From Nannocystis bainbridge (GTDB lineage: Bacteria > Myxococcota_A > Polyangia > Nannocystales > Nannocystaceae): a stretch of DNA of 64,000 bases. The stretch is from the NCBI RefSeq assembly GCF_028368995.1, contig NZ_JAQNDL010000001.1, positions 1,728,001 through 1,792,000 of the forward strand. Reading direction: 5' to 3'. Made by a program: the position numbers and the translations under genes. Shown here one piece after another: positions 11,653-24,421 of this stretch. Position 1 is the stretch's first letter; each line of letters begins with the position of its first letter. The notes beneath the pieces are model-generated. The model saw only the letters and a list, made by a program, of their open reading frames with translations, was not told the DNA's origin and made no database searches.

Positions 11653-11655
11653 GCC

Positions 11656-13884
11656 ATGAACGATCGCTGGCAGCAGCTCGAAGCGCTCGTGCAGGCCGCC
11701 CTCGATTGCTCCGTCGAGCGCCGCGGCGCCGTCGTGGCCGGCCTCACCGACGACCTCGACTTGCGCGCCGAGGCGCTCGAGCTGGCCGACGCCCACGACC
11801 GCGCCGGTGATTTCCTCGAGCCGTCGTCCGAGCCGCCGGACCCGACCGCCATCGGCCCCTACCGCGTGATCCGCCGCCTCGGCAGCGGCGGCATGGGCGA
11901 CGTCTATCTGGCCCGCCGCGACGACCAGGAGTTCGCGCGCGACGTCGCCGTCAAGCTGCTCGCGCCGGGGCTCTACGGCCGCGATTTCGTGCGCCGCTTC
12001 CGCGCCGAGCGCCAGATCCTCGCCCGCCTCGATCACCCCAACATCGCCCGCCTCCACGACGGCGGCGCCCACTTCGACGGCCGGCCCTACCTGGTGATGG
12101 AGCTCGTCGAGGGCGTGCCGCTCGACCGCTTCTGCGAGCAGCGGCGCCTCGGGCTGAGCGAGCGTCTGGGGCTCGTGCTCGCGGTGTGCGACGCCGTCGA
12201 CTACGCCCATCATCGCCTCGTCCTCCACCTCGATCTCAAGCCCGAGAACATCCTCGTCATGGCTGACGGCGCCCCCAAGCTGCTCGATTTCGGGGTCGCC
12301 AAGCTGATCGATCCAGCCAGCGCCGCCACCCTGCACACCACCCGTACCGGCCCGCGCCCGCACACCCCCCATTACGCCAGCCCCGAGCAGCGCGCCGGCG
12401 GCTCGCTCACCACCGCCAGCGACGTCTACTCGCTCGGCGTCGTGCTCTACCGGCTGCTCAGCGGTCGGCTGCCGCACCCCGAGGTCGGCGCGGGCGACAG
12501 CGCCTCCTCGCCCCTGCCGCGCCGGCCGAGCGCCCCCGATCCGCACGGAGCGATCCACGACACCGGCGAGCCCGAGCTCACGGCGCGGCTGCGTCGGCAG
12601 CTCGCGGGCGACCTCGACGCGATCGTGCTCAAGGCCCTGCGCCACGAGCCCGCGCTGCGCTACGACACCGTCGACAAGCTGGCCGAGGACCTCCGCCGCC
12701 ATCGCCGGGGCCTGCCCGTGCTGGCGCGCCAGGGCACCTTCCGCTACCGCGCCGGCAAGCTCGTGCGCCGGCACGCGCGCGCGCTGATCGTGGCCGCGCT
12801 GGGCCTCGCGCTGCTGGTCGGCTTCTCCGTCGCCATGACGATCCAGGCCGCACGGCTCGCGGAGGAGCGGCGCACCGCCGAGACCATCGGCGCCTTCCTC
12901 GTCGACCTCGTCACCCACGCGCCCAGCGACGACACCCTCGCGCGCGAGCTCACCGTCGGCCAGATCCTCGACTATGGCCGCAGCCTGCTCGCGCAGCCGC
13001 ACGTGTACGCGAGCCCCGAGATCGACACCGAGCTGCGCATCGTGCTGGCGCGGCTGCTCCGCAGCGCCGAGCAGCACGACGAGGCCGAGGCGCTGCTGCA
13101 GCGGGCGCTCGCCGATCGCCTGGCGCAGCGCGGCGAGGGTCATGGCGACGTCGCCGAGGTCCGGCTCGAGCTCGGGCGGCTGAGCTTCGAGCGCGACCGC
13201 GAGGCCGAGGCCGAGCGCGAGCTGGTGCCCGCGCTCGCGGTCCTCGAGCGTGAGCGCGACCTGGCCGACCGCGACATCGTCACCGCGCGGCTCCTCATGA
13301 CCCAGGTGTCGCCCCTGCAGCGGAACATGAACGACCCCGCGCCGCTGCTGGACCGCGCGCTCGCGCCATTGGCCGCCCGTGCCGTCACCACGCGCGACCA
13401 CCTCGACCTTTTGACGCTCCGCAACTTCCGCGCTCTGCTGGTCCGGCGCGTCGACCTCGAAGCCGCCATCCTCGAGCTCGAGGCGATCGTCGCCGAGTTC
13501 ACCGCGCGCGGCCTGCCGCCCTACCCCGGCCTCACCCAGTCGCTCATGGACCTCGGCACCTCGTACCGCTGGGCCGGTCGGCCGCGCGAGGCCATCGCCA
13601 CCTTCGAGCGCGCGCTGCGGATCCACGACGAGGGCCAGGACCTCCCGCCGTGGCACCGGCTGCCGTTCGAGATCGGCCTGGCCCGGGCCCACCGCGCCGC
13701 GGGCGATCGCGTCGCCAGCGAGCGCATCCTCCGGCGGGCGCTCGCGCTGTCGGTCGCCAGCCTCCACGAGAACCACGAGGAGACCCGCATCATCGCCAGC
13801 TACCTCGGCGACGAGCTGCGCGACGCGGGCCGCCTCGCCGAGCTCGCGGCCCACGAGCGCCGGTTCCCGCCGCGGGGGCATTGA
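11656..13884 (+). CDS. Membrane Ser/Thr protein kinase with TPR-like C-terminus
   Basis: LGSGGMGDVY, VAVK, HLDLKPEN, DFG, YASPEQ, one TM segment, then helical repeats. Confidence 0.93.
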   Translation: MNDRWQQLEALVQAALDCSVERRGAVVAGLTDDLDLRAEALELADAHDRAGDFLEPSSEPPDPTAIGPYRVIRRLGSGGMGDVYLARRDDQEFARDVAVKLLAPGLYGRDFVRRFRAERQILARLDHPNIARLHDGGAHFDGRPYLVMELVEGVPLDRFCEQRRLGLSERLGLVLAVCDAVDYAHHRLVLHLDLKPENILVMADGAPKLLDFGVAKLIDPASAATLHTTRTGPRPHTPHYASPEQRAGGSLTTASDVYSLGVVLYRLLSGRLPHPEVGAGDSASSPLPRRPSAPDPHGAIHDTGEPELTARLRRQLAGDLDAIVLKALRHEPALRYDTVDKLAEDLRRHRRGLPVLARQGTFRYRAGKLVRRHARALIVAALGLALLVGFSVAMTIQAARLAEERRTAETIGAFLVDLVTHAPSDDTLARELTVGQILDYGRSLLAQPHVYASPEIDTELRIVLARLLRSAEQHDEAEALLQRALADRLAQRGEGHGDVAEVRLELGRLSFERDREAEAERELVPALAVLERERDLADRDIVTARLLMTQVSPLQRNMNDPAPLLDRALAPLAARAVTTRDHLDLLTLRNFRALLVRRVDLEAAILELEAIVAEFTARGLPPYPGLTQSLMDLGTSYRWAGRPREAIATFERALRIHDEGQDLPPWHRLPFEIGLARAHRAAGDRVASERILRRALALSVASLHENHEETRIIASYLGDELRDAGRLAELAAHERRFPPRGH

Positions 13885-14122
13885 CTGCGACACCCACGAA
13901 TCGGGCCGCCGGCGGACGCCCCTTATTTATGTCCCCCGGGACATGTCCGATCGGTCATCCACGAAGCATGGCCCGCGGCTCCGCAAGCGCAGAGCAGGTC
14001 ACCCCCGAGCGCGCGGCCGCCGTGATGCGCGGCGCGGTCTCACGGGACGTCGCTCGCAATCGGCCATGGTCGCGCGATTCCGCGGCTTCGTCGCGCCCGT
14101 CGTTCTCGGGTATTTTGCCGCG

Positions 14123-15334
14123 ATGATCGTGCGCCTCCTCGGGCCCTCGTGCATCGCCGCCGGCCTCGTCCTCACCGGTTGCGGCGACGACGGCGGCCGC
14201 GGCGACAGCACCGCGACGACGCAGCCGGGCACCGCCTCGACCGCGAGCCCCACGAGCGAGCCGACGACCTCGACGTCCTCGACGTCTTCGACCTCCTCGA
14301 CCACCGCGCTGCCGACCGGCACCACCGACGACACCGCGACGACCGGGCCGGTCGCGACCACCACGACCGACGCGACCAGCACGACGACCACCGGCGCGAG
14401 CACGACCCTCGACACCGAGGGCACCACTGGCAGTTGCCTCGACGTCCTGCCGACCCCGGCCGGGCCCGAGGCCGTGCTCGCGGCCGAGTACGCCGCCGAT
14501 TACGTCGCCTACGACCTCGGCCCGGTGCCCAGGGACGGCGGCGGCGTGCTGCCGCGGCTCGGCGGCCTCGTCGTGTTCCCCGACGATCCGCTCATGGCCT
14601 ACGTCGTCGGTCCCTCGGAGGTCGACGCCGCCGAGCTGCACGTGGTGCCGCTCGAGCGTGGCCCGTGCGGCCACATCATCGGCTTCGGGGGCGGCGCGGT
14701 GAAGCTGCTCGGCTCGCCCTACCTCGACCTGATGACCAATGGCCCGAAGGGGGTCGTGTTCATCTCGCACTACCCGACCAACATGCTGTCGCAGATCGTG
14801 CCTGGCGCCCCGGCGCTGGCCAGCACCATCGATCTCGGGCCGCTCGGCGTCGAGGCCACGTGGAGCCCGGGCGGCCTCAACTTCGTGCCGCCCGGCTACC
14901 CCGACGCCGGCATGCTGCGGATCATGGGCTACCCGTACATGCAACAGAACTCGGTGATGGGCTCGTGGTACCGCGCCGACATCACTTACAACGGCACGTC
15001 CTACGACATCGCCCCGGTCGAGAAGACGGTCGAGCTCCCGGGCGGCCCCGGCGGGTTCGCGTACATCCCCGCGGGCTCGCCCGGGTTCCCCGAGCAGCGC
15101 ATCATGGTCACCGAGTGGCTGACCCAGCCGCGCCGCGTCTCCTCCTACGCTGTCGACGCCGAGGGCGACCCGATCGTCGACTCGCACAAGCCGTTCTTCG
15201 AGTCGTTCGTCAACCCGTGGGGCTCGTACTTCGAGCCCGAGACCGGCGATTACATCTTCCTGCAGTGGGAGGCCCAGCCGGACCACGTGTATATCGTCCA
15301 GGGCTTCGTGCCCCCGCCGCCGATCCCCGGGTGA
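14123..15334 (+). CDS. Thr/Ser-rich lipoprotein with beta-propeller-like domain
   Basis: Lipobox LVLTGC, a long T/S linker, then a globular domain. Confidence 0.8.
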   Translation: MIVRLLGPSCIAAGLVLTGCGDDGGRGDSTATTQPGTASTASPTSEPTTSTSSTSSTSSTTALPTGTTDDTATTGPVATTTTDATSTTTTGASTTLDTEGTTGSCLDVLPTPAGPEAVLAAEYAADYVAYDLGPVPRDGGGVLPRLGGLVVFPDDPLMAYVVGPSEVDAAELHVVPLERGPCGHIIGFGGGAVKLLGSPYLDLMTNGPKGVVFISHYPTNMLSQIVPGAPALASTIDLGPLGVEATWSPGGLNFVPPGYPDAGMLRIMGYPYMQQNSVMGSWYRADITYNGTSYDIAPVEKTVELPGGPGGFAYIPAGSPGFPEQRIMVTEWLTQPRRVSSYAVDAEGDPIVDSHKPFFESFVNPWGSYFEPETGDYIFLQWEAQPDHVYIVQGFVPPPPIPG

Positions 15335-15440
15335 GCGGGCCGCAGCGATGACTCCGCGACGACTTCCGCGCGCCCTCCTGGCACAGTCCTGAAGTCGCGC
15401 CCCGCGGCGCCCGTCGGCCCGTGGTACAGTGCCTGCAATC

Positions 15441-15863
15441 ATGGCGTCGAGCTCGAGCGGGACCATGCGGCTGACGCGAGAGGGGGACATCGTCCATCTC
15501 CAGATCTGCGGCCCGCTCGACCTCGGCCGGGCCACGCAGATGCTCGAGCTCGTGGGCCAGGTCCAGCGCGAGACGGGCCGGGCCTACCTGCTCGCCGACC
15601 TGACCCAGCTCGAAGGCATCCCGGCCGATGCGCGGCGCGCCATCGGCGAGTGGAGCAAGACGAATATCGCCACCGCCGCCGCGCTGTACGGGGCCAACTT
15701 CGCCGCGCGCACGTTGACGAGCCTGCTGTACCAGGCGGTGCGGATAGTCGGCAACAAGCAGTTCGAGCTGGAGTTCGCCCGCGACGAGGCCGCGGGGCGC
15801 CGCTGGCTCGACGCCCATCGCGCCAGCCACGGCGGCGAAGGTCCACGAGGCGAGCCTGCCTGA
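15441..15863 (+). CDS. STAS/SEC14 (SpoIIAA-like) domain protein
   Basis: YLLADLTQLEGIPADARR, AALYGANF and FARDEAAGRRWL are typical of the myxobacterial SpoIIAA-like family. Confidence 0.8.
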   Translation: MASSSSGTMRLTREGDIVHLQICGPLDLGRATQMLELVGQVQRETGRAYLLADLTQLEGIPADARRAIGEWSKTNIATAAALYGANFAARTLTSLLYQAVRIVGNKQFELEFARDEAAGRRWLDAHRASHGGEGPRGEPA

Positions 15864-16595
15864 GATCGATGCGCGTCGGAAGACGCGGGGTCTGGAGAGC
15901 TGGGTGACGGCGGGCACGGAGCGGCGTAGCGGTCCCTCGCCACGGCGGGGCCCTCCCAGGCAACGTGCTCGGCGCCCTCGGGCTTCGATGGCAATATGTC
16001 TCTTGGGACATGTTCGTATGTGCTTCGGCGATTGAGGGGCATGCGCGCCGGCGTCGGCGTGCCCGCACATGAGAAGGCGTGGCGGCCGGCTCGCCTCGCT
16101 CGATGCTCGCGCGCTTGCGAGGACGCGGGTCGCCGCGCTCGCCTCGCGCGCTGTCATCACTCCAGCGCGCTGGTTCCGAGTCGCTCGCCCGCATCGTCAC
16201 ACGACCGACCTGGACCGTCCGAGTTTGTGATGAGCGGGACCCCCGCAGATCGGCCGACTCGCGTCAGTGTCCACGGCGCCGACTGGCACGATCTCGACTC
16301 ACCCCGGCAGCCTGCATCGGGCGGTGGATGTGGCATCGCGCTCGCGTACACTCGCCCGTGCTTCGCGTCTGCCGCGGTCCTGCTCGCTCGCGCGCGACAT
16401 GGTTCCATGGGCCCGTCTTGTGGTCGTGAAACCTCGCGCGGACTGGTGCGACATTTGTCCGATCAGGACCTCACGAGAGGCGTCGAGGAGCCGGTCATGC
16501 GAGGACCGAATGCACGCCTGCCGCACACCCTGACGTTTCGCCGTGACGAAGCTGCTTTCGGCTGGCGTCGCCTTTGTGGTATCTTTACGCAGTTC

Positions 16596-16946
16596 ATGGC
16601 CTCGGCCGCGGCTGCAAAGGGGAGATCGGTGTTGGCGCTGCTCATCGCAGCGTTCACGCTCCTGTTTTCTGCCGCGCCGGACTCGCTCTGGACGGCGGAG
16701 CACGGCGCTGATGACAGCACCGTCTCCGTCGCGGGGCAGCATGACGGCTCCCTGGTCTCGCGGCACGAGCAGTCCTCCGTGCCTTCGCCGCGCCGCGATC
16801 GGAGCAACCCGGACCCCGTGCGGTTCGACCCTGTCATGGTGGTCGATCACGCATGGGACCCGTGGCCGACGCCGATAACGAGCGTGACCGCCGGGATGCG
16901 CCGTATTCGCAGTCAGCACGCGCGTGGCCCGCCGGCCGTCGGCTGA
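16596..16946 (+). CDS. Small exported leader protein ending in RGPP (candidate ribosome arrest peptide)
   Basis: N-terminal KGR plus hydrophobic VLALLIAAFTLLFSAA, a polar linker, and C-terminus RIRSQHARGPPAVG*. Confidence 0.65.
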   Translation: MASAAAAKGRSVLALLIAAFTLLFSAAPDSLWTAEHGADDSTVSVAGQHDGSLVSRHEQSSVPSPRRDRSNPDPVRFDPVMVVDHAWDPWPTPITSVTAGMRRIRSQHARGPPAVG

Positions 16947-17009
16947 CTTCGTGACGCTCGTGGAGCCCTACGCTCCGTGACCGCCGAAGTCCGCGAATCG
17001 CAGCCGACG
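16937..17009 (+). promoter_or_regulatory. Nested mRNA stem-loop covering the uORF stop codon
   Basis: CGTCGGCTG (16937-45) pairs with CAGCCGACG (17001-09); ACTTCG (16946-51) with CGAAGT (16985-90); TCGTGGAGC (16958-66) with GCTCCGTGA (16972-80). Confidence 0.55.
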
Positions 17010-17170
17010 ACGACAGCCTGAGAACCAGGTCCCTGGCCACCCTTCGGGTGATACGCGCCATGCCGCATCGACGTGCCGTCGACAGCGCCTTGGGCCGTCA
17101 CCACTCCTGCGACAACGAGCCCCCCGACGCATGGGGCCACGCCCGAGCCTTGCCCGAAATCGACCCTTCG

Positions 17171-19242
17171 ATGACTGACCAAACGCGAGTGTCCGCCCGC
17201 GTGCTCGAGCTCCTCGCGGAGAGCGCCGGCCACGGACTGTCGCTGCACCTGGCCCACGAGGCCGCCCGCAGCGTCCGCTTCAACGACGGCGACTGGCTCG
17301 GGCCGGCGGCCAAGGCCCTGCGCCGGGCCGGGCTCAAGGCGTCTCGCTTCGCCTTCGACGGCCCGCGCGAGCTCCTGCGCCTGCGCACGCTCGAGACCCC
17401 GGCGGTCACCCGCGTCGGCAAGCGCTGGCTCCTGATGCTCGGCGAGCGCGCCGGCGTGCTCGACCTGCGCGTCGTCGACGACCTCGGCGAGCAGGTGCTG
17501 CCGCTGCGCGGGCCGGCGCTGGCCGGCTGGCTCGCCGACCACGGCGCGACCTGGCCGCTGACCTGGCTGGCGGTCGAGCCGCAGCTCATGTACGCCGCCC
17601 TGACGCAGGCGCCGACCGACGCGCGCCGGCTGCTGCGGGCCCTCCGGCTCGAGCGCCGCGGGATCTACGTCGTGCTCGTCTACGGCGTCGCCATCGCCGC
17701 GGCCTCGCTCGCCGTCCCGCTGGCCACCCAGGCGCTGGTCAACACGATCTCGGCCACGGCGATGCTCGACCAGATCGTGATCCTGGCGATCTTGCTGGCG
17801 TTGACGCTGAGCGCGGTCGCGTTCCTGCGGGTGCTGCAGCTGGTGGCCGTCGAGCGGATCCACCGCCGCTGGTGGGTGCGCGGCGCGACCGACTGGATCC
17901 GGCGCATGGGCCAGACGTCGCGCGCGGCCCGGCAGTCGGCCTCGACCCGCGACCTGACCAACCGCTTCCTCGACGTCGCCATGCTGCAAAAAGACGTCGC
18001 GGCGCTGCTGCTGAACGGCTCGTCGCTGGTGCTGGTGATGCTGGCCAGCCTGGTGCTGCTGGGCTTCTACCACCCGGTCCTGCTGGCCTTCGACGCGGTG
18101 CTGATCTTCAGCATCGGCGCCGTCCTGCTCGCCGGCATCGGCGCGACCGCCGGGGCCAAGCGCGAGGCCAGCGCGCGCTGGGCCGTGTTCGCGTGGATGG
18201 ACGAGGTCGCCGGCGGCCGCCTCACCTTCTCGAACCCCCGCGGCCGCGCCCTCGCCGACGGCCGCGGCGAGTTCCTGATCCGCGACTGGCTGGACGCGCG
18301 CGGCCGCTACTTCAAGCCGCTGCTCCGCCACGTGATCGCCGGCGCCGGCCTCGAGGTCATCGCCACCGTCGCGGTGCTGGCGATCGGCGGCTCGCTGGTG
18401 ATCCAGGGCGAGCTCGAGCTCGGCCAGCTGGTGGCGGCCTCGGTCCTGGTGTCGCAGATCGGCTCCGGCGTCGGCCGCCTCGGCCGCCAGCTCGACCCGA
18501 TCTACGAGGGCATCGCCTCGGTCGCGTCGATGGGCAAGGCCCTCGACGCCGACCTCGAGCCGAGCGGCGGCGAGGTCCTGCCGCGCCGCCCCGTCCCGCT
18601 CGGGCTCGAGCTGGTCGACGACGCCGGCACCGTGGTCCTGGCCCTCAAGCCCGGCGAGCGCGCGGCGCTGGTCGGCGCCACCGACAGCCACAGCCGCGTG
18701 CTCGACCTGATCTACGGGTTCTTCGGCCGCACCTGGCTGCCGAACCTGTCGGCCCGGCTCGACGGCCACGACGTGCACCTGCTCGAGCTCGAGAGCCTGC
18801 GCGACCAGGTCGCGCTGGTCCGCGGCGGCGAGATCGTGGCCACCACCGCGCTGCAGAACCTCGTCGGCGCCAACTGGACCGGCCACGCCTCCGAGCTCGA
18901 TACACTGCTCGACCTCGTCGACCTCCAGCCCGCGCTGCAGCGGCTCCCCAACGCCCTGCAAGAGGAGCTGCTGCCCGACGGCGACGCCGGTCCGCTGACC
19001 GAGACCGAGGTCCGCCGGGTCGTGCTGGTGCGAGCCCTGATCGCCGCCCCGCGGCTGCTGCTGCTCGACCTCGGGCTCGACCGCCTCGGCCTGGCGGCCC
19101 CGCGGCGCGCCGCCCTGCTCGACTGGATCTTCGACCGCCGCCGACCGTGGACCGTGCTCGTCGTCACCGACAGCGTCCACAGCCGCGACATCCTGGCCCG
19201 CTGCGACCAACAACAAGCGATCCGTATCGGAGGGAGCGAGCG

Positions 19243-19246
<4 letters not shown>
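17171..19246 (+). CDS. T1SS-type ABC transporter (C39-like N-terminal domain + TMD + degenerate NBD), copy 1
   Basis: HlyB-like TMD (GQLVAASVLVSQI); NBD motifs altered: LVGATDSHSR, LTETE, LLLLDLGLD, VVTD. Confidence 0.85.
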
Positions 19247-20565
<1,319 letters not shown>

Positions 20566-20566
20566 G

Positions 20567-22306
20567 ATGTCGACGCGAACCCTGCGACTCGCGAGCGCGG
20601 CCCTCCTGGGCGCCGGCCTGGTGGTGCCCGTCTCGGCAGCAGCCGCGGCGACCCCGCCCGCGACGGCCTCGACCCGGACAACCCCGGCCCCGACCCCGCC
20701 CCCCGGCCTCGCGCCGGCCCCGACCCCGACGGCCCCGACCCCCTCCCCGGTCCCGCGCGGCCGCACGCCGGCCACCATCCCTGAGAACCCGGTGCGAGAG
20801 GCCACCCGCGACCCCTCGCGCGACACCACACGCGACACCACGCGCGATCCGCCGCGGACCCCGGCGTGGGAGCCCGAGCCGCGCGAGCGGGCCGAGGAGG
20901 CCGCGCCGAAGGAGCGCCGCGGCCGGGTGCTGACATTGGCCGAGGTGCTCGACAGCGTCGAGCAACGCGACCCGCGGATGGAGGCCGCCGAGCTCGGGAT
21001 CCGCGGCGCGGAGGGCCAGGCCCGCTCGGCCCGCGGCACCTACGACCCGGTCCTGCGCGGCCGCGCCACGCTCGAGCCGATGTTCCGCAACGCCATCCTC
21101 GACACCCGCGTCGAGCAGCCGACGCCGCTGTGGGGCATGACCGCGTGGGTCGGCTGGCAGGTCGGCGTCGGCCGGCGGCCCTACTACAACACCACCCTCG
21201 ACAGCATCCTCGACATCGACGACCGCGTCGGCAGCCGCGACGTGCGCTCGACCGCCGGCACCCTGACGGCCGGGCTCACGCTGCCGCTGTGGCGCGACCG
21301 CAGCATCGACCGCCGGCGCGCCAACATCCGCCAGTCGAAGATGGAGACCGAGCGCATGCAGGAGGCCCGCGACGCCCGCCTGCTCGAGCTCGAGATCGAG
21401 GCGGCCACCAAGTACTGGACCTGGGTCGCCAACGGGCTCCGCCTCGAGATCGAGATGATGCTGCTCGACCTGGCGCAGACCCGCGACGAGGCGCTGCAGC
21501 GGCGCATCGAGCTCGGCGCCCTCGACCCGCTGGCCGGCGTCGACAACCAGCGCCTGATCCTCGACCGCGAGGGCCGCGTGGTCACGGCCGAGCGCGCGTT
21601 CCAGCAGGCCGGGCTCGAGCTGTCGCTGTACCTGCGCGACGCCAACGGCCAGCCGGTCGTGCCCGACCCCAACCGCCTGCCGAGCCGCCTGCCCGAGATG
21701 GTCAGCCCGGAGGCCGGCGGCAACATCGAGAGCGAGATCGGCGAGGCGCTCGAGCGCCGGCCCGACCGCAAGGCCCGCATGTTCCTCCGCTCGCAGGCCG
21801 AGGTCGAGCTGCGCTGGGCCAAGAACCAGCGCGCGCCGCGGGTCGAGCTGTCGGCCTGGGCCTCGCGCTACATGGGCCGGCCGCTGATCCCGGCCTTCAC
21901 CCGCAACGGCGCGGTAGTCTCGCTGCTGTTCGAGATCCCGATCCCGCTGCGAGCGTCCCGCGGCCAGCTCGAGGCGACCCGCGCGGCCGCCGAGAGCGTC
22001 GCCGCCGAGCTGCGCTTCCTCGACGACACGATCGCCGTGGCGATCCGCGACGGCCACTCCGCGCTGGTCGCCGCCTACCGCCGCGCCCGCCTGGCCAACC
22101 GCGAGGTCGAGCTGTCACGCCAGCTCGCGGCCTCCGAGTACCGCCGGTTCCAGCTCGGCGCCGGCGACCTGCTGCTCGTCAACCTGCGCGAGGTCGCCAG
22201 CGCCGACGCGGCCAACAACGAGATCCAGGCCGTCGCCGACTACTTCGTCGCCAAGGCGACGCTCGAGGTCTCGCTCGGGCGGGGCGTCCAGTCCGTGGCG
22301 CCGTGA
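20567..22306 (+). CDS. TolC-family outer membrane protein
   Basis: Signal peptide, Pro/Thr-rich N-terminal linker, LTLAEVLDSV, GLTLPLWR, EYRRFQLGAGDLLLVNLRE. Confidence 0.9.
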   Translation: MSTRTLRLASAALLGAGLVVPVSAAAAATPPATASTRTTPAPTPPPGLAPAPTPTAPTPSPVPRGRTPATIPENPVREATRDPSRDTTRDTTRDPPRTPAWEPEPRERAEEAAPKERRGRVLTLAEVLDSVEQRDPRMEAAELGIRGAEGQARSARGTYDPVLRGRATLEPMFRNAILDTRVEQPTPLWGMTAWVGWQVGVGRRPYYNTTLDSILDIDDRVGSRDVRSTAGTLTAGLTLPLWRDRSIDRRRANIRQSKMETERMQEARDARLLELEIEAATKYWTWVANGLRLEIEMMLLDLAQTRDEALQRRIELGALDPLAGVDNQRLILDREGRVVTAERAFQQAGLELSLYLRDANGQPVVPDPNRLPSRLPEMVSPEAGGNIESEIGEALERRPDRKARMFLRSQAEVELRWAKNQRAPRVELSAWASRYMGRPLIPAFTRNGAVVSLLFEIPIPLRASRGQLEATRAAAESVAAELRFLDDTIAVAIRDGHSALVAAYRRARLANREVELSRQLAASEYRRFQLGAGDLLLVNLREVASADAANNEIQAVADYFVAKATLEVSLGRGVQSVAP

Positions 22307-22342
22307 GCCCTTCCGCCAATCCGCAAGTTCGAGAGGTCATCC

Positions 22343-24421
22343 GTGGAGCCGACACTGCAGACCAGCGTGGATGAAGCCGCACCGATCCCCGCGCGCGTGT
22401 TCCAGCTGCTCGCCGCGGCGACCGAGCAGAAGCTCGCGCCGCCGCCGACGCACGCGCCTCGCGAGGCGTTCGGGCTCGAGGCGTGGGACGTCGGCGCCGC
22501 CCGGGCGGTCCAGCAGGCGGGCCTCAAGGCCGCCCGCTTCAACATCGAGACCGCCGACGACCTGGCGCGCCTGTGCGCCCTCGATGCCCCGGCGTTCTCC
22601 CTGATCGGCGGCCGCTGGGTCGTGCTGCTCGGGACCCGCCGCGGCGCGCTCGACCTGGTGGTGATCGACGGCCGCAGCGAACGCCGCCAGCGCGTGCGCC
22701 CGGCCGAGCTGATGGCGTGGATGCAGCCCCGCGGAGCGCCGCGCCCGAGCCACCCGTGGCTGGCGATCGAGCCGCGGATGATGCTGGCGCCGCTGTCGTT
22801 CCCGCCGACCGAGTTCATCCGGTTGATGCGGACCTTCGTGCTCGAGAAGCGCGACGTGTACGTCATCAGCGTCTACGGCGCGGTCATGGCGGTCGTCTCG
22901 CTGGCGGTCCCGATCTCGGCCCAGGCGCTCGTCAACACCATCTCGGTCAACGCGCTGGCGCAGCCGATCTTGATGCTCTCGGTCATGTTGATGGTGGCCC
23001 TCGGCGCGATCGCGGTGCTGCGCGTGATGCAGTTCACGGTCGCCGAGCGGATCTACCGCCGCCTGTGGGTGCGCGGCGTGGCCGACTGGATCCGCCGCAC
23101 GTCCCGGGCCTCGCGAGAGTCGCGGCAGGAGATCTCGAACCGCGAGCTGTGCAACCGCTACATGGACATGCCGATCTTGCAGAAGGACTTCTGGTCGCTG
23201 CTGCTCGACGGCACCTCGCTGACGATGGTGAGCGGGGCCAGCCTGGTGCTGCTGGCGTTCTATCACCCGCTGCTGCTCGCGTTCGACGTCGTGCTGCTGG
23301 TCGGCATCGCCCTCGTGATGCTCGCGGGCCTCGGCGCCGAGGGGCGCGCGGTCTACGAGTCCCACACCAAGTGGTCGCTGTTCGGCTGGATCGACGACAT
23401 CGGCAACATGCGGATCGCGTTCTCGAACCCGCGCGGGCGGGCGCTGGCCGACGCCCAGGGCGAGGTGCTGGTGCGCAACTGGCTGCAGGCGCGCGGCAGC
23501 TATTACTCGACCCTGCTGCGCCACATCGTCACCGGCGCCGCGCTCGAGGTGCTGGCGACCGTCGGCGTGCTGGCGATCGGCGGCTGGCTGGTGATCTCGC
23601 GCGAGCTGACGCTCGGCCAGCTGGTGGCGGCGTCGGTGCTGGTGTCGCAGATCGGCGCCGGGGTCCGCGGCCTCGGGCAGCAGCTCGACCCGATCTACGA
23701 GGGCGTGGCCGCGATCGAGACCCTCGGCCGCACGCTCGACGCCAAGCTCGAGCCGCTCGGCGGCGAGGTCCTGCCGACGCTGGCGGGGCCGATGGCGGTC
23801 GACCTCAGCGTCGAACACACGCAGCTGGCGATCGAGCCCGGCCAGCGCGTCGGCCTGGTCGGCGGCAACGACGGCCACAGCCGCGTGCTCGACCTGCTCT
23901 ACGGGCTCTACGACCGCAAGCCGCCGGTGACGCTGGCGGGCCGCCTCGACGGCCGCGACGTCGCCCAGCTCGAGCTCGACAGCCTGCGCGGGCAGGTGGC
24001 CCTGGTCCGCGGCGGCGAGCTCGTGGGCGCGTCGCTGCTCGAGAACCTGGTCGGCCCCGACTGGCAGGGCGACCACACCGAGCTCGACGAGCTGCTCGAC
24101 CTCGTCGACCTCCGCACCACCGTGCTCGCCCTGCCCGGCGGCCTCGATCAAGAGCTGCTGCCCGACGGCGACGGCGGCCAGCTGAGCGAGGCGCAGATCC
24201 GCCGGGTGGTGCTGCTGCGCGCGCTGGTCACCCAGCCCCGCCTGCTGCTGATCGATCAGGGCCTCGACCGGCTCGACCTCACCCCGCCGCAGCGCACGGC
24301 CCTGCTCGACTGGGTCTTCGACCGCGCCCGCCCGTGGACCCTGCTCGTCGTCACCGACAGCGTCGAGAGCGACGAGCTGCTGGCCCGCTGCGACATGCAG
24401 CACGCGCTCGACGCGGCGTGA
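22343..24421 (+). CDS. T1SS-type ABC transporter with degenerate NBD, copy 2 (paralogue of 17171..19246)
   Basis: Collinear similarity to copy 1; NBD motifs LVGGNDGHSR, LSEAQ, LLLIDQGLD, VVTD. Confidence 0.85.
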   Translation: MEPTLQTSVDEAAPIPARVFQLLAAATEQKLAPPPTHAPREAFGLEAWDVGAARAVQQAGLKAARFNIETADDLARLCALDAPAFSLIGGRWVVLLGTRRGALDLVVIDGRSERRQRVRPAELMAWMQPRGAPRPSHPWLAIEPRMMLAPLSFPPTEFIRLMRTFVLEKRDVYVISVYGAVMAVVSLAVPISAQALVNTISVNALAQPILMLSVMLMVALGAIAVLRVMQFTVAERIYRRLWVRGVADWIRRTSRASRESRQEISNRELCNRYMDMPILQKDFWSLLLDGTSLTMVSGASLVLLAFYHPLLLAFDVVLLVGIALVMLAGLGAEGRAVYESHTKWSLFGWIDDIGNMRIAFSNPRGRALADAQGEVLVRNWLQARGSYYSTLLRHIVTGAALEVLATVGVLAIGGWLVISRELTLGQLVAASVLVSQIGAGVRGLGQQLDPIYEGVAAIETLGRTLDAKLEPLGGEVLPTLAGPMAVDLSVEHTQLAIEPGQRVGLVGGNDGHSRVLDLLYGLYDRKPPVTLAGRLDGRDVAQLELDSLRGQVALVRGGELVGASLLENLVGPDWQGDHTELDELLDLVDLRTTVLALPGGLDQELLPDGDGGQLSEAQIRRVVLLRALVTQPRLLLIDQGLDRLDLTPPQRTALLDWVFDRARPWTLLVVTDSVESDELLARCDMQHALDAA

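Follow-up and report, generated by a model that had tools for sequence, protein, structure and literature searches.

SecM, VemP and MifM are monitoring substrates of the Sec/YidC machinery in which arrest is relieved by pulling during export, and SecM carries the sequence RAGP. Arrest peptides of the ApdA/ApdP class are also the subject of Sakiyama 2021, Fujiwara 2024 and Morici 2024. It has been reported that RAPP and RGPP are depleted in proteomes and enriched towards the C-terminal ends of small secreted or membrane proteins encoded upstream of diverse genes, that bacterial proteomes exclude RGPP more than any other tetrapeptide and that it causes the most robust arrest, refractory to EF-P, and that seven out of seven tested examples from Streptomyces lividans arrest, as does CruR (Fujiwara et al., EMBO J 2025, PMC12992588). 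In Bordetella pertussis, the ribosome stalled on CruR, a protein reported to consist of one helix plus coil, is proposed to protect the RNA of a spacer of 162 nucleotides (nt) against Rho (PMC9426467). In Rhodobacter capsulatus, stalling on CutF is described to open a stem-loop over the ribosome-binding site (RBS) of the next gene (PMC9973294; bioRxiv 10.1101/2025.02.05.636593). CzcI of Cupriavidus, a small exported protein encoded upstream of czcCBA, carries no C-terminal proline motif as far as it is described in the same report (PMC9973294). Here we analyse a stretch of 64,000 nt from Nannocystis bainbridge (the window; 72% GC, G000:C1:1728001-1792000 of an 11-Mb genome), where an open reading frame (ORF) of 116 residues that ends shortly after R-G-P-P, hereafter the leader, precedes the genes of a putative exporter. 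Positions are those of the window; L, G and C numbers denote the loci, genomes and contigs of the comparison set, G000 being the window's own genome.

At the sequence level the leader displays all the features by which the RAPP/RGPP arrest-peptide class is recognized: a size below 300 residues with an N-terminal signal or transmembrane segment, an R-[A/G]-P-P near the C-terminus that is conserved among homologues, and a gene downstream on the same strand on which cis regulation could act. It is probably a cis-acting regulatory leader of this class and, by analogy with the described cases, its most likely role is that of a built-in sensor adjusting the level of the pump. With ApdA, ApdP and the arrest peptides of S. 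lividans it shares the small size, the N-terminal localisation signal, the R[A/G]PP near the C-terminus, the same-strand downstream gene and a variable sequence N-terminal to the motif. In contrast to them, it belongs to a new Myxococcota family without a Pfam entry, precedes tripartite export pumps and is a predicted arrest peptide. The leader and the elements that surround it are the following:

16575-16585, plus strand: promoter-like extended -10 element, TGTGGTATCTT (TGn followed by TATCTT), ending 10 nt before the leader ATG
16596-16946, plus strand: leader gene, 116 codons plus TGA, recognized by codon-position GC, homologues and the ratio of nonsynonymous to synonymous substitution rates (dN/dS)
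16629-16676, plus strand: hydrophobic core of a predicted signal anchor or signal peptide, residues 12-27 (VLALLIAAFTLLFSAA), preceded by K8 and R10
16923-16934, plus strand: codons CGT GGC CCG CCG for R110-G111-P112-P113, the presumed arrest site, invariant in 22 of 22 aligned members
16937-17009, plus strand: nested hairpin with its 5' arm over the last codons and the stop (-37.8 kcal/mol, z -4.39)
17073-17094, plus strand: spacer element, window version GTGCCGTCGACAGCGCCTTGGG, consensus GTGTCAGGCCGCGCCTTGGG, alignable in all 13 copies

The leader protein family and its C-terminal motif

The leader ORF extends from an ATG at 16596 to a TGA at 16944-16946. Its reading frame is open already from 15996 (316 codons), and the GC content at the first, second and third codon positions is 0.68/0.59/0.83 in 16596-16946, as compared with 0.70/0.64/0.67 in 15996-16595 and 0.77/0.47/0.97 in ABC1, the gene that follows; by this measure the leader would be coding only from about 16596. 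About 730 nt on its 5' side show no coding signal. The hydropathy maximum over 15 residues, 2.6, falls on the hydrophobic residues 12-27, and AlphaFold2, run with the family alignment, places a helix at residues 3-25 with a predicted local distance difference test (pLDDT) of up to 93 and coil elsewhere. The helix is predicted to be a signal peptide or a signal anchor, and the polar tail that follows is predicted to be unstructured. There are no cysteines in the window's protein. The description of this locus in the initial annotation as a 116-residue ORF with a signal or transmembrane segment and a polar linker is borne out, and codon-position GC, homologues and dN/dS show it to be a real gene.

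Homologues of the leader were found at E values of 1e-18 to 1e-12 in a six-frame search of 40 relatives, in G001, G003, G005, G007 and G010, and the own genome has a paralogue (contig C5); significant matches were confined to Nannocystis. The conservation of this upstream ORF (uORF) in relatives, a point set beforehand, is thus manifested in five further Nannocystis genomes and the paralogue. Thirteen copies from six Nannocystis genomes form three subfamilies (A, B and C types). A profile search of 1.84 billion representative proteins recovers only 19 family clusters; a search of relatives with alignment A1 returned only the already-known Nannocystis loci, and a scan of metagenome contigs with A1 yielded 381 pattern matches and no relatives. 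Neither the leader nor any of 22 family members matches Pfam at E up to 10. By these searches the leader family is a new one without a Pfam match, almost restricted to Nannocystis. As for DUF2946, the family of CutF and CruR, none of the 22 members matches it at E up to 10 and the CXXC/CxxxC motifs are lacking; the leader is placed outside DUF2946 because it has neither the family match nor a CXXC motif. Two copies can be described separately. The paralogue G000:C5:385706-386038 (L011/L030) is intact, with the C-terminus ...KARGPPVGRC, and the B-type copy G007:C2:657044-657375 (L016/L038/L041) is matched by the profile in two frames (residues 4-39 and 31-115), being broken at its N-terminus as a frameshifted pseudogene or through an assembly error.

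In the alignment of 22 sequences the mean column identity is 46%, and the only invariant columns are L15, L16, R110, G111, P112 and P113. Further motifs, HD.P.VSRQQ, S.RRD and WPLP, are conserved without being invariant, and in some subfamilies a single Cys stands a few residues before the conserved HD. The window's leader is about 42% identical to its orthologues and ABC1 78-86%, which indicates that the leader evolves fast outside a few fixed features. At the same time, dN/dS is 0.13-0.18 in the three closest leader pairs, linker included, and an environmental contig that is 95-99% identical to the window has two differences in the leader ORF, both at synonymous third positions. These sequence comparisons show the leader to be a fast-evolving small protein under purifying selection.

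Across the aligned sequences, RGPP near the stop is the most conserved feature of the leader. It is followed in the window by A-V-G and the stop; all 13 Nannocystis copies end with [A/P]RGPP, two to four residues and TGA, and the C-terminal motif is present in 17 of the 19 library clusters, the other two being one truncated and one frameshift-like sequence. RGPP, which the initial annotation noted three codons before the stop, is kept close to the stop in these relatives. The third positions vary across DNA copies (CGT, CGC or CGG; all four GGN; CCG, CCC or CCT; CCG or CCC), and this synonymous variation at the R, G, P and P codons indicates that selection acts on the peptide. When the own genome is scanned for ORFs with a hydrophobic segment and a C-terminal R[AG]PP, only the window copy and the C5 paralogue are obtained.

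Pumps encoded downstream of the leader

The gene that follows the leader has been identified for 10 of 15 Nannocystis copies, a count outside which stand the downstream genes of L006, L013, L015 and L016. It is an ATP-binding cassette (ABC) gene followed by one for a HlyD-like protein, an adaptor gene alone where ABC1 has decayed, or a Czc-type gene of the resistance-nodulation-division (RND) superfamily. The ABC-HlyD arrangement is seen after A-type copies, C-type copies and one B-type copy. At the C5 paralogue a HlyD-like gene follows with only a short ABC1 remnant between. The diverged member L032 (G008:C524), which ends with ...YPRGPPMPA, precedes a gene for a CzcB-type lipoprotein adaptor, behind which an RND pump is encoded, and the diverged member L040 (G005:C2:4623036-4623362), which ends with ...TARGPPMV, has a CusA/CzcA-type RND pump 98 nt on. 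The presence of these two members before CzcB/CzcA-type heavy-metal RND genes links the family to the metal-related RAPP/RGPP uORFs of the literature. Wherever the downstream gene has been identified, the leader family precedes envelope-spanning pump genes on the same strand.

This context separates the leader from several described proteins. Like SecM, VemP and MifM it combines a localisation signal with a putative C-terminal arrest module, whereas its downstream genes encode ABC, HlyD-like and OEP proteins and not Sec/YidC components; since these genes do not fit, the leader is placed outside the Sec/YidC monitoring substrates, ApdA and ApdP included. The distance between secM and secA is also far shorter than the leader spacer here. 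With CzcI, the diverged members L032 and L040 share the position directly upstream of RND metal efflux genes; there is no sequence match, and a language-model nearness of 0.90 serves as a lead only.

The association extends to a second genus. ABC1 homologues occur in 60 of 73 Nannocystaceae genomes. Thirty loci with such a homologue were returned and 26 of them examined, L056, L067, L069 and L070 having been dropped for a missing ABC start or a contig end. A HlyD gene comes after the ABC gene in 15 of 17 compared loci (16 distinct, as L074 re-covers L048), and L072 and L073 end just past the ABC gene. An ORF with a hydrophobic helix and RGPP is located 195-285 nt upstream of the ABC gene in 8 of the 26 loci, namely six Nannocystis loci of A or C type and two of genus g14, in agreement with the expectation that uORFs with a signal and R[AG]PP stand upstream of homologous operons. 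In the g14 loci, L048 (G076:C1) and L049 (G073:C229), the ABC protein is about 50% identical and both leaders precede an ABC-HlyD pair, 208 and 242 nt before the ABC gene. The g14 leaders consist of the helix, RHDT/RNDT and WFRRG segments, RGPP, six residues and TAG; they share only this layout with the Nannocystis family, and the family hidden Markov model matched none of 62 non-Nannocystis genomes, g14 leader ORFs included. By eye, a promoter-like element TTGAnC-N17-ATAGT abuts the g14 leader ATG. With the filters applied, an ORF with helix and RGPP is absent upstream in 14 further, more distant ABC-HlyD loci.

The initial annotation knew of no characterisation of such a leader paired with an exporter in myxobacteria. 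This stands insofar as no paper was found in the literature in which such a leader is linked to Nannocystis or to an efflux pump, and the words transporter, efflux, HlyD and TolC are absent from the main text of PMC12992588, whose figures or supplements may list such classes; the general idea, on the other hand, is no longer new (Fujiwara et al. 2025). Export pumps would then be a target class undescribed in the main text of that survey and in the other papers found, and regulation by RGPP arrest peptides, if it operates here, would be extended to Myxococcota and to envelope-spanning export pumps.

The same data have to be weighed against the leader being an ordinary small membrane or periplasmic protein, a pump accessory or a CzcI-like regulator, in which RGPP would have a function at the protein level or mark a slow spot that is tolerated and regulates nothing. 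The purifying selection across the linker (dN/dS 0.12-0.15 in close pairs), the conservation of HD.P.VSRQQ, S.RRD and WPLP besides RGPP and the persistence of leaders where ABC1 has decayed would fit such a protein, as would language-model neighbours that include CzcI and DUF2946-like clusters (0.90-0.91, leads only). We nevertheless consider this explanation unlikely. Outside the helix the invariant residues are only R-G-P-P, the tail is predicted to be unstructured, one module stands before three pump architectures, and g14 keeps nothing but the layout of helix and RGPP. Moreover, this tetrapeptide is the one reported as most excluded from bacterial proteomes (PMC12992588).

Expression signals, hairpin and spacer

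A TGnTAnnnT element is found by eye at the same place, 10-13 nt before the ATG, in 8 of 9 aligned leader upstream regions. The closeness of this -10-like element to the ATG suggests that the 5' untranslated region is very short or absent, which would give a near-leaderless transcript starting with the leader. No Shine-Dalgarno sequence is present before the leader; a consensus scan of 15800-17300 found neither a full sigma-70 promoter with two hexamers nor an intrinsic terminator, and Rfam gave no match in the same interval at E up to 1. Of two soil metatranscriptome contigs, each from a different study, one spans 16778-17095 (3' half of the leader, stop, hairpin and spacer element) and the other 17122-17333 (ABC1 start). 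Relative to the window, the former has four substitutions and a single insertion; two substitutions are at synonymous third positions of the ORF, and one substitution and the insertion both fall in hairpin loops. As RNA-library contigs they hint weakly at transcription through the stop and the hairpin, with DNA carry-over possible. In the two RNA runs no cover was seen over 16300-16777 or 17096-17121, an absence that carries no weight.

The hairpin at 16937-17009 reaches -37.8 kcal/mol as compared with -24.6 +/- 3.0 for shuffled sequences, none of 200 shuffles being as stable (z -4.39); when folded in its 111-nt context, the same stability is reached by 4 of 200 shuffles (z -2.07). Its 5' edge lies two bases past the second Pro codon, and the hairpin is 160 nt away from the ABC1 start. 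In 15 copies, the 90 nt after Pro-Pro give z values from -3.7 to +0.75: they are structured in L001, L040, L004, L013 and L002 (z -3.7 to -2.6) and range from -1.6 to +0.75 in the other ten, and several copies have a helix whose 5' arm begins 1-8 nt past the Pro codons. The hairpin that the initial annotation placed over the leader stop therefore exists and starts where it was said to start, but in these 15 copies it is not a conserved element.

Between the leader and the next gene there are 165-270 nt in 10 copies of A, B and C type (224 nt in the window), 255 nt in L032, 98 nt in L040 and, for the g14 pair, 208 and 242 nt as given above. By pattern search the spacer element follows the leader stop at a distance of 118-135 nt in 11 of 13 copies, the degenerate version of the window included; the 13 copies that bear it include L002-L006 and L011-L017, and within the own genome no place other than the two leader loci carries it. 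As it stands in differing frames relative to ABC1, it is not coding. A weaker likeness to it is seen by eye in g14. This element could be an internal promoter or operator, a strand of an RNA switch, or a pause site. Furthermore, the coding strand of the spacer has an excess of C over G, with a mean of +7 to +12% at 150-270 nt past the stop, modestly above the local background.

Four candidate roles or features of the spacer were tried and rejected. A pairing of the R-G-P codons with the GGCCGCG of the element, proposed by RNAalifold, offers no possibility of covariation, has a probability from near zero to about 0.75 and fails in the window. The element as an anti-start-codon strand forms a duplex with the ABC1 start that ranks 4th to 73rd among about 150-184 sequence windows. 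A sigma-54-type reading has a spacing that, by eye, fits some B-type copies only and not the window, and an ATG-TGA mini-ORF about 75 nt past the leader stop is seen by eye in several copies and is absent in the window. L003, L011, L012, L006 and others have a conserved (A/G/T)TGTGAA at about this distance (75 nt) from the stop, and the window has CTGAGAA; the motif reads as a start codon plus TGA in several copies, and GGGAGG precedes it in L003.

With regard to its closest described counterparts, the leader resembles CruR in several respects. In both cases the uORF product, exported or with little structure, carries R-x-P-P at its C-terminus, the intergenic region is long, rich in GC (162 nt for CruR, 224 nt here) and incompatible with translational coupling, and the coding strand of the spacer has an excess of C over G. 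In contrast, the leader has no DUF2946 match and no CXXC, and it precedes an exporter whereas CruR precedes a TonB-dependent importer. CutF and the leader both have a proline-rich C-terminal stalling motif, a presumed one here, and a stem-loop between the leader and the regulated gene; the use of a co-translationally exported nascent chain as a periplasmic sensor, a feature of CutF, is proposed for the leader by analogy. The stem-loop of CutF shields the downstream Shine-Dalgarno sequence, whereas here there is no Shine-Dalgarno sequence and no conserved masking helix was found; in addition, the leader lacks the Cu-binding CxxxC and belongs to another protein family.

On the model of ApdA/ApdP, CruR and CutF, the ribosome would arrest while its P site holds Pro112 and its A site Pro113-tRNA. 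At this moment the helix would already be in the membrane, and the HD..VSRQQ and S.RRD segments would be at or beyond the translocon. Going by the known geometry of the ribosome, the arrested particle would cover the stop codon and approximately the first nine bases of the hairpin (16937-16945). The arrest would persist for a time fixed by translocation or by a cue that the exposed chain receives in the periplasm, and two routes could lead from there to the pump: either the 224-nt spacer RNA refolds and allows initiation at 17171, as in SecM and CutF, or Rho is kept off the RNA and transcription continues, as in CruR. What is controlled would be the amount of the ABC1-HlyD-TolC-ABC2 exporter. 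We lean slightly towards a possible transcriptional mechanism of the CruR type, given the length of the spacer, the C-over-G bias and the fact that ABC1 has no Shine-Dalgarno sequence in front of it. Force sensing or secretion monitoring by the leader can only be inferred; as the family also stands before metal-type RND pumps, an envelope or ligand sensor of the CruR/CutF type fits as much as a monitor of the SecM type.

Several observations weigh against the leader being a cis-acting regulator of the pump. RGPP occurs 62 times, and AGPP 174 times, in about 2.9 million residues of the genome's open frames with high GC at the third codon position, and a motif tolerated 62 times is by itself no proof of stalling. 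The leader is intact where only a remnant of ABC1 is left in several B-type loci, G010 and G001 among them. At the RNA level, the spacer is long, the hairpin has no shared sequence or uniform structure in the 15 copies, ABC1 has no Shine-Dalgarno sequence to mask, no structure that consistently masks the ABC1 start was found across copies, and the long-range pairing from RNAalifold is inconsistent in single-sequence folds. Finally, the conserved spacer element, if it were an internal promoter or operator, could uncouple ABC1 from the leader; a separate promoter between 16946 and 17171, which the initial annotation named as evidence against its reading, is for this reason conceivable.

It is also conceivable that the arrest serves to tether the operon mRNA at the membrane, easing the insertion of the downstream proteins, instead of gating expression in response to a signal. 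The model for this logic is XBP1u, and the leader would be suited to it by its membrane-targeting helix, by the fact that every downstream product is an envelope protein and by the lack of an RBS-masking structure among those looked for. We know of no bacterial precedent, and the long, conserved spacer element would be left unexplained. Together with the published bacterial RAPP-type cases, which as described regulate expression (PMC9426467, PMC9973294), this makes tethering a quite improbable purpose for the arrest.

Within the preferred reading of the leader as a regulatory arrest peptide, a more specific version can be put forward tentatively, and we regard it as rather doubtful. The helix, the disordered periplasmic segment with HD..VSRQQ and S.RRD, and RGPP may constitute a portable nascent-chain sensor that is placed before different tripartite pumps, an ABC-type exporter with both ATPase domains devoid of catalytic residues as well as RND pumps of the CzcBA type, and is tuned by a periplasmic ligand or the state of the envelope, not by Sec capacity, acting through the RNA element of the spacer. 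If this were true, the coupling through the spacer element would be a device not yet described for arrest peptides. The locus provides a compact experimental system, with a short leader, one invariant motif and a conserved spacer element, and natural variants before three pump types in two genera. With it one could ask by what means a stalled ribosome acts on a gene over 200 nt downstream, and whether export force or a periplasmic ligand serves as the cue.

The exporter operon and neighbouring genes

The leader is followed on the same strand by four genes:

17171-19246, plus strand: ABC1, with an unassigned N-terminal domain, a transmembrane domain and a degenerate nucleotide-binding domain; the best NCBIfam match, an NHLP bacteriocin export ABC subunit, is far below the cut-off
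19243-20565, plus strand: HlyD-like membrane fusion protein; HlyD/RND adaptor models match at E 1e-20 to 1e-17, below the curated cut-offs
20567-22306, plus strand: OEP/TolC-like outer membrane efflux protein (PF02321, 90.2 bits, cut-off 22)
22343-24421, plus strand: ABC2, a paralogue of ABC1 with degenerate ATPase motifs (Pfam ABC_tran, 38.3 bits, above the cut-off of 25)

ABC1 has its orthologues, to which it is 78-86% identical, in G001, G003, G005 and G007. The ATG of the HlyD-like gene overlaps the ABC1 stop (ATGA), with GGAGGG 8 nt upstream. The presence of a membrane fusion protein and an outer membrane factor alongside the ABC genes is a feature shared with type I secretion and peptide-export ABC systems, and the initial annotation was correct in placing the leader at the head of an ABC-HlyD-TolC operon: the four genes occupy 17171-24421, and the leader has a conserved promoter-like element of its own at the ATG. 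ABC1 scores 18.9 bits against Pfam ABC_tran, below the cut-off of 25. By eye, its motifs are GATDSHS for Walker A, LTETE for the signature and D-L after Walker B; those of ABC2, aligned to P-glycoprotein, are GGNDGHS, LSEAQ and D-Q. In both proteins, unlike in a canonical exporter, the Walker A Lys is replaced by His, and the catalytic Glu by Leu in ABC1 and by Gln in ABC2. An exporter with two apparently non-hydrolytic nucleotide-binding domains would be unusual.

The leader could in principle be a substrate of this ABC-HlyD-TolC system, a bacteriocin-like precursor, since its gene adjoins the exporter and the best matches of the latter, below threshold as they are, are NHLP bacteriocin export subunits. 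This is highly improbable: the N-terminus is a Sec-type helix and not a double-glycine leader, a C39 peptidase domain was found in neither ABC1 nor ABC2, and other members of the family stand before CzcBA-type metal pumps. That there is no gene at all, and that the leader is a chance frame in DNA of 72% GC, where long open frames are common (316 codons from 15996), with a third-position GC of just 0.83 against 0.97 in ABC1 and no Pfam match, is already refuted by protein-level homologues with synonymous variation, the 19 clusters in the library of 1.84 billion proteins and the conserved start context.

Upstream of the leader, two ORFs on the same strand at 13943-15334 and 15429-15863 have a strong coding signal and no match in Pfam or NCBIfam, and they are preceded by a gene at 11653-13884 that encodes a Ser/Thr kinase-TPR protein.

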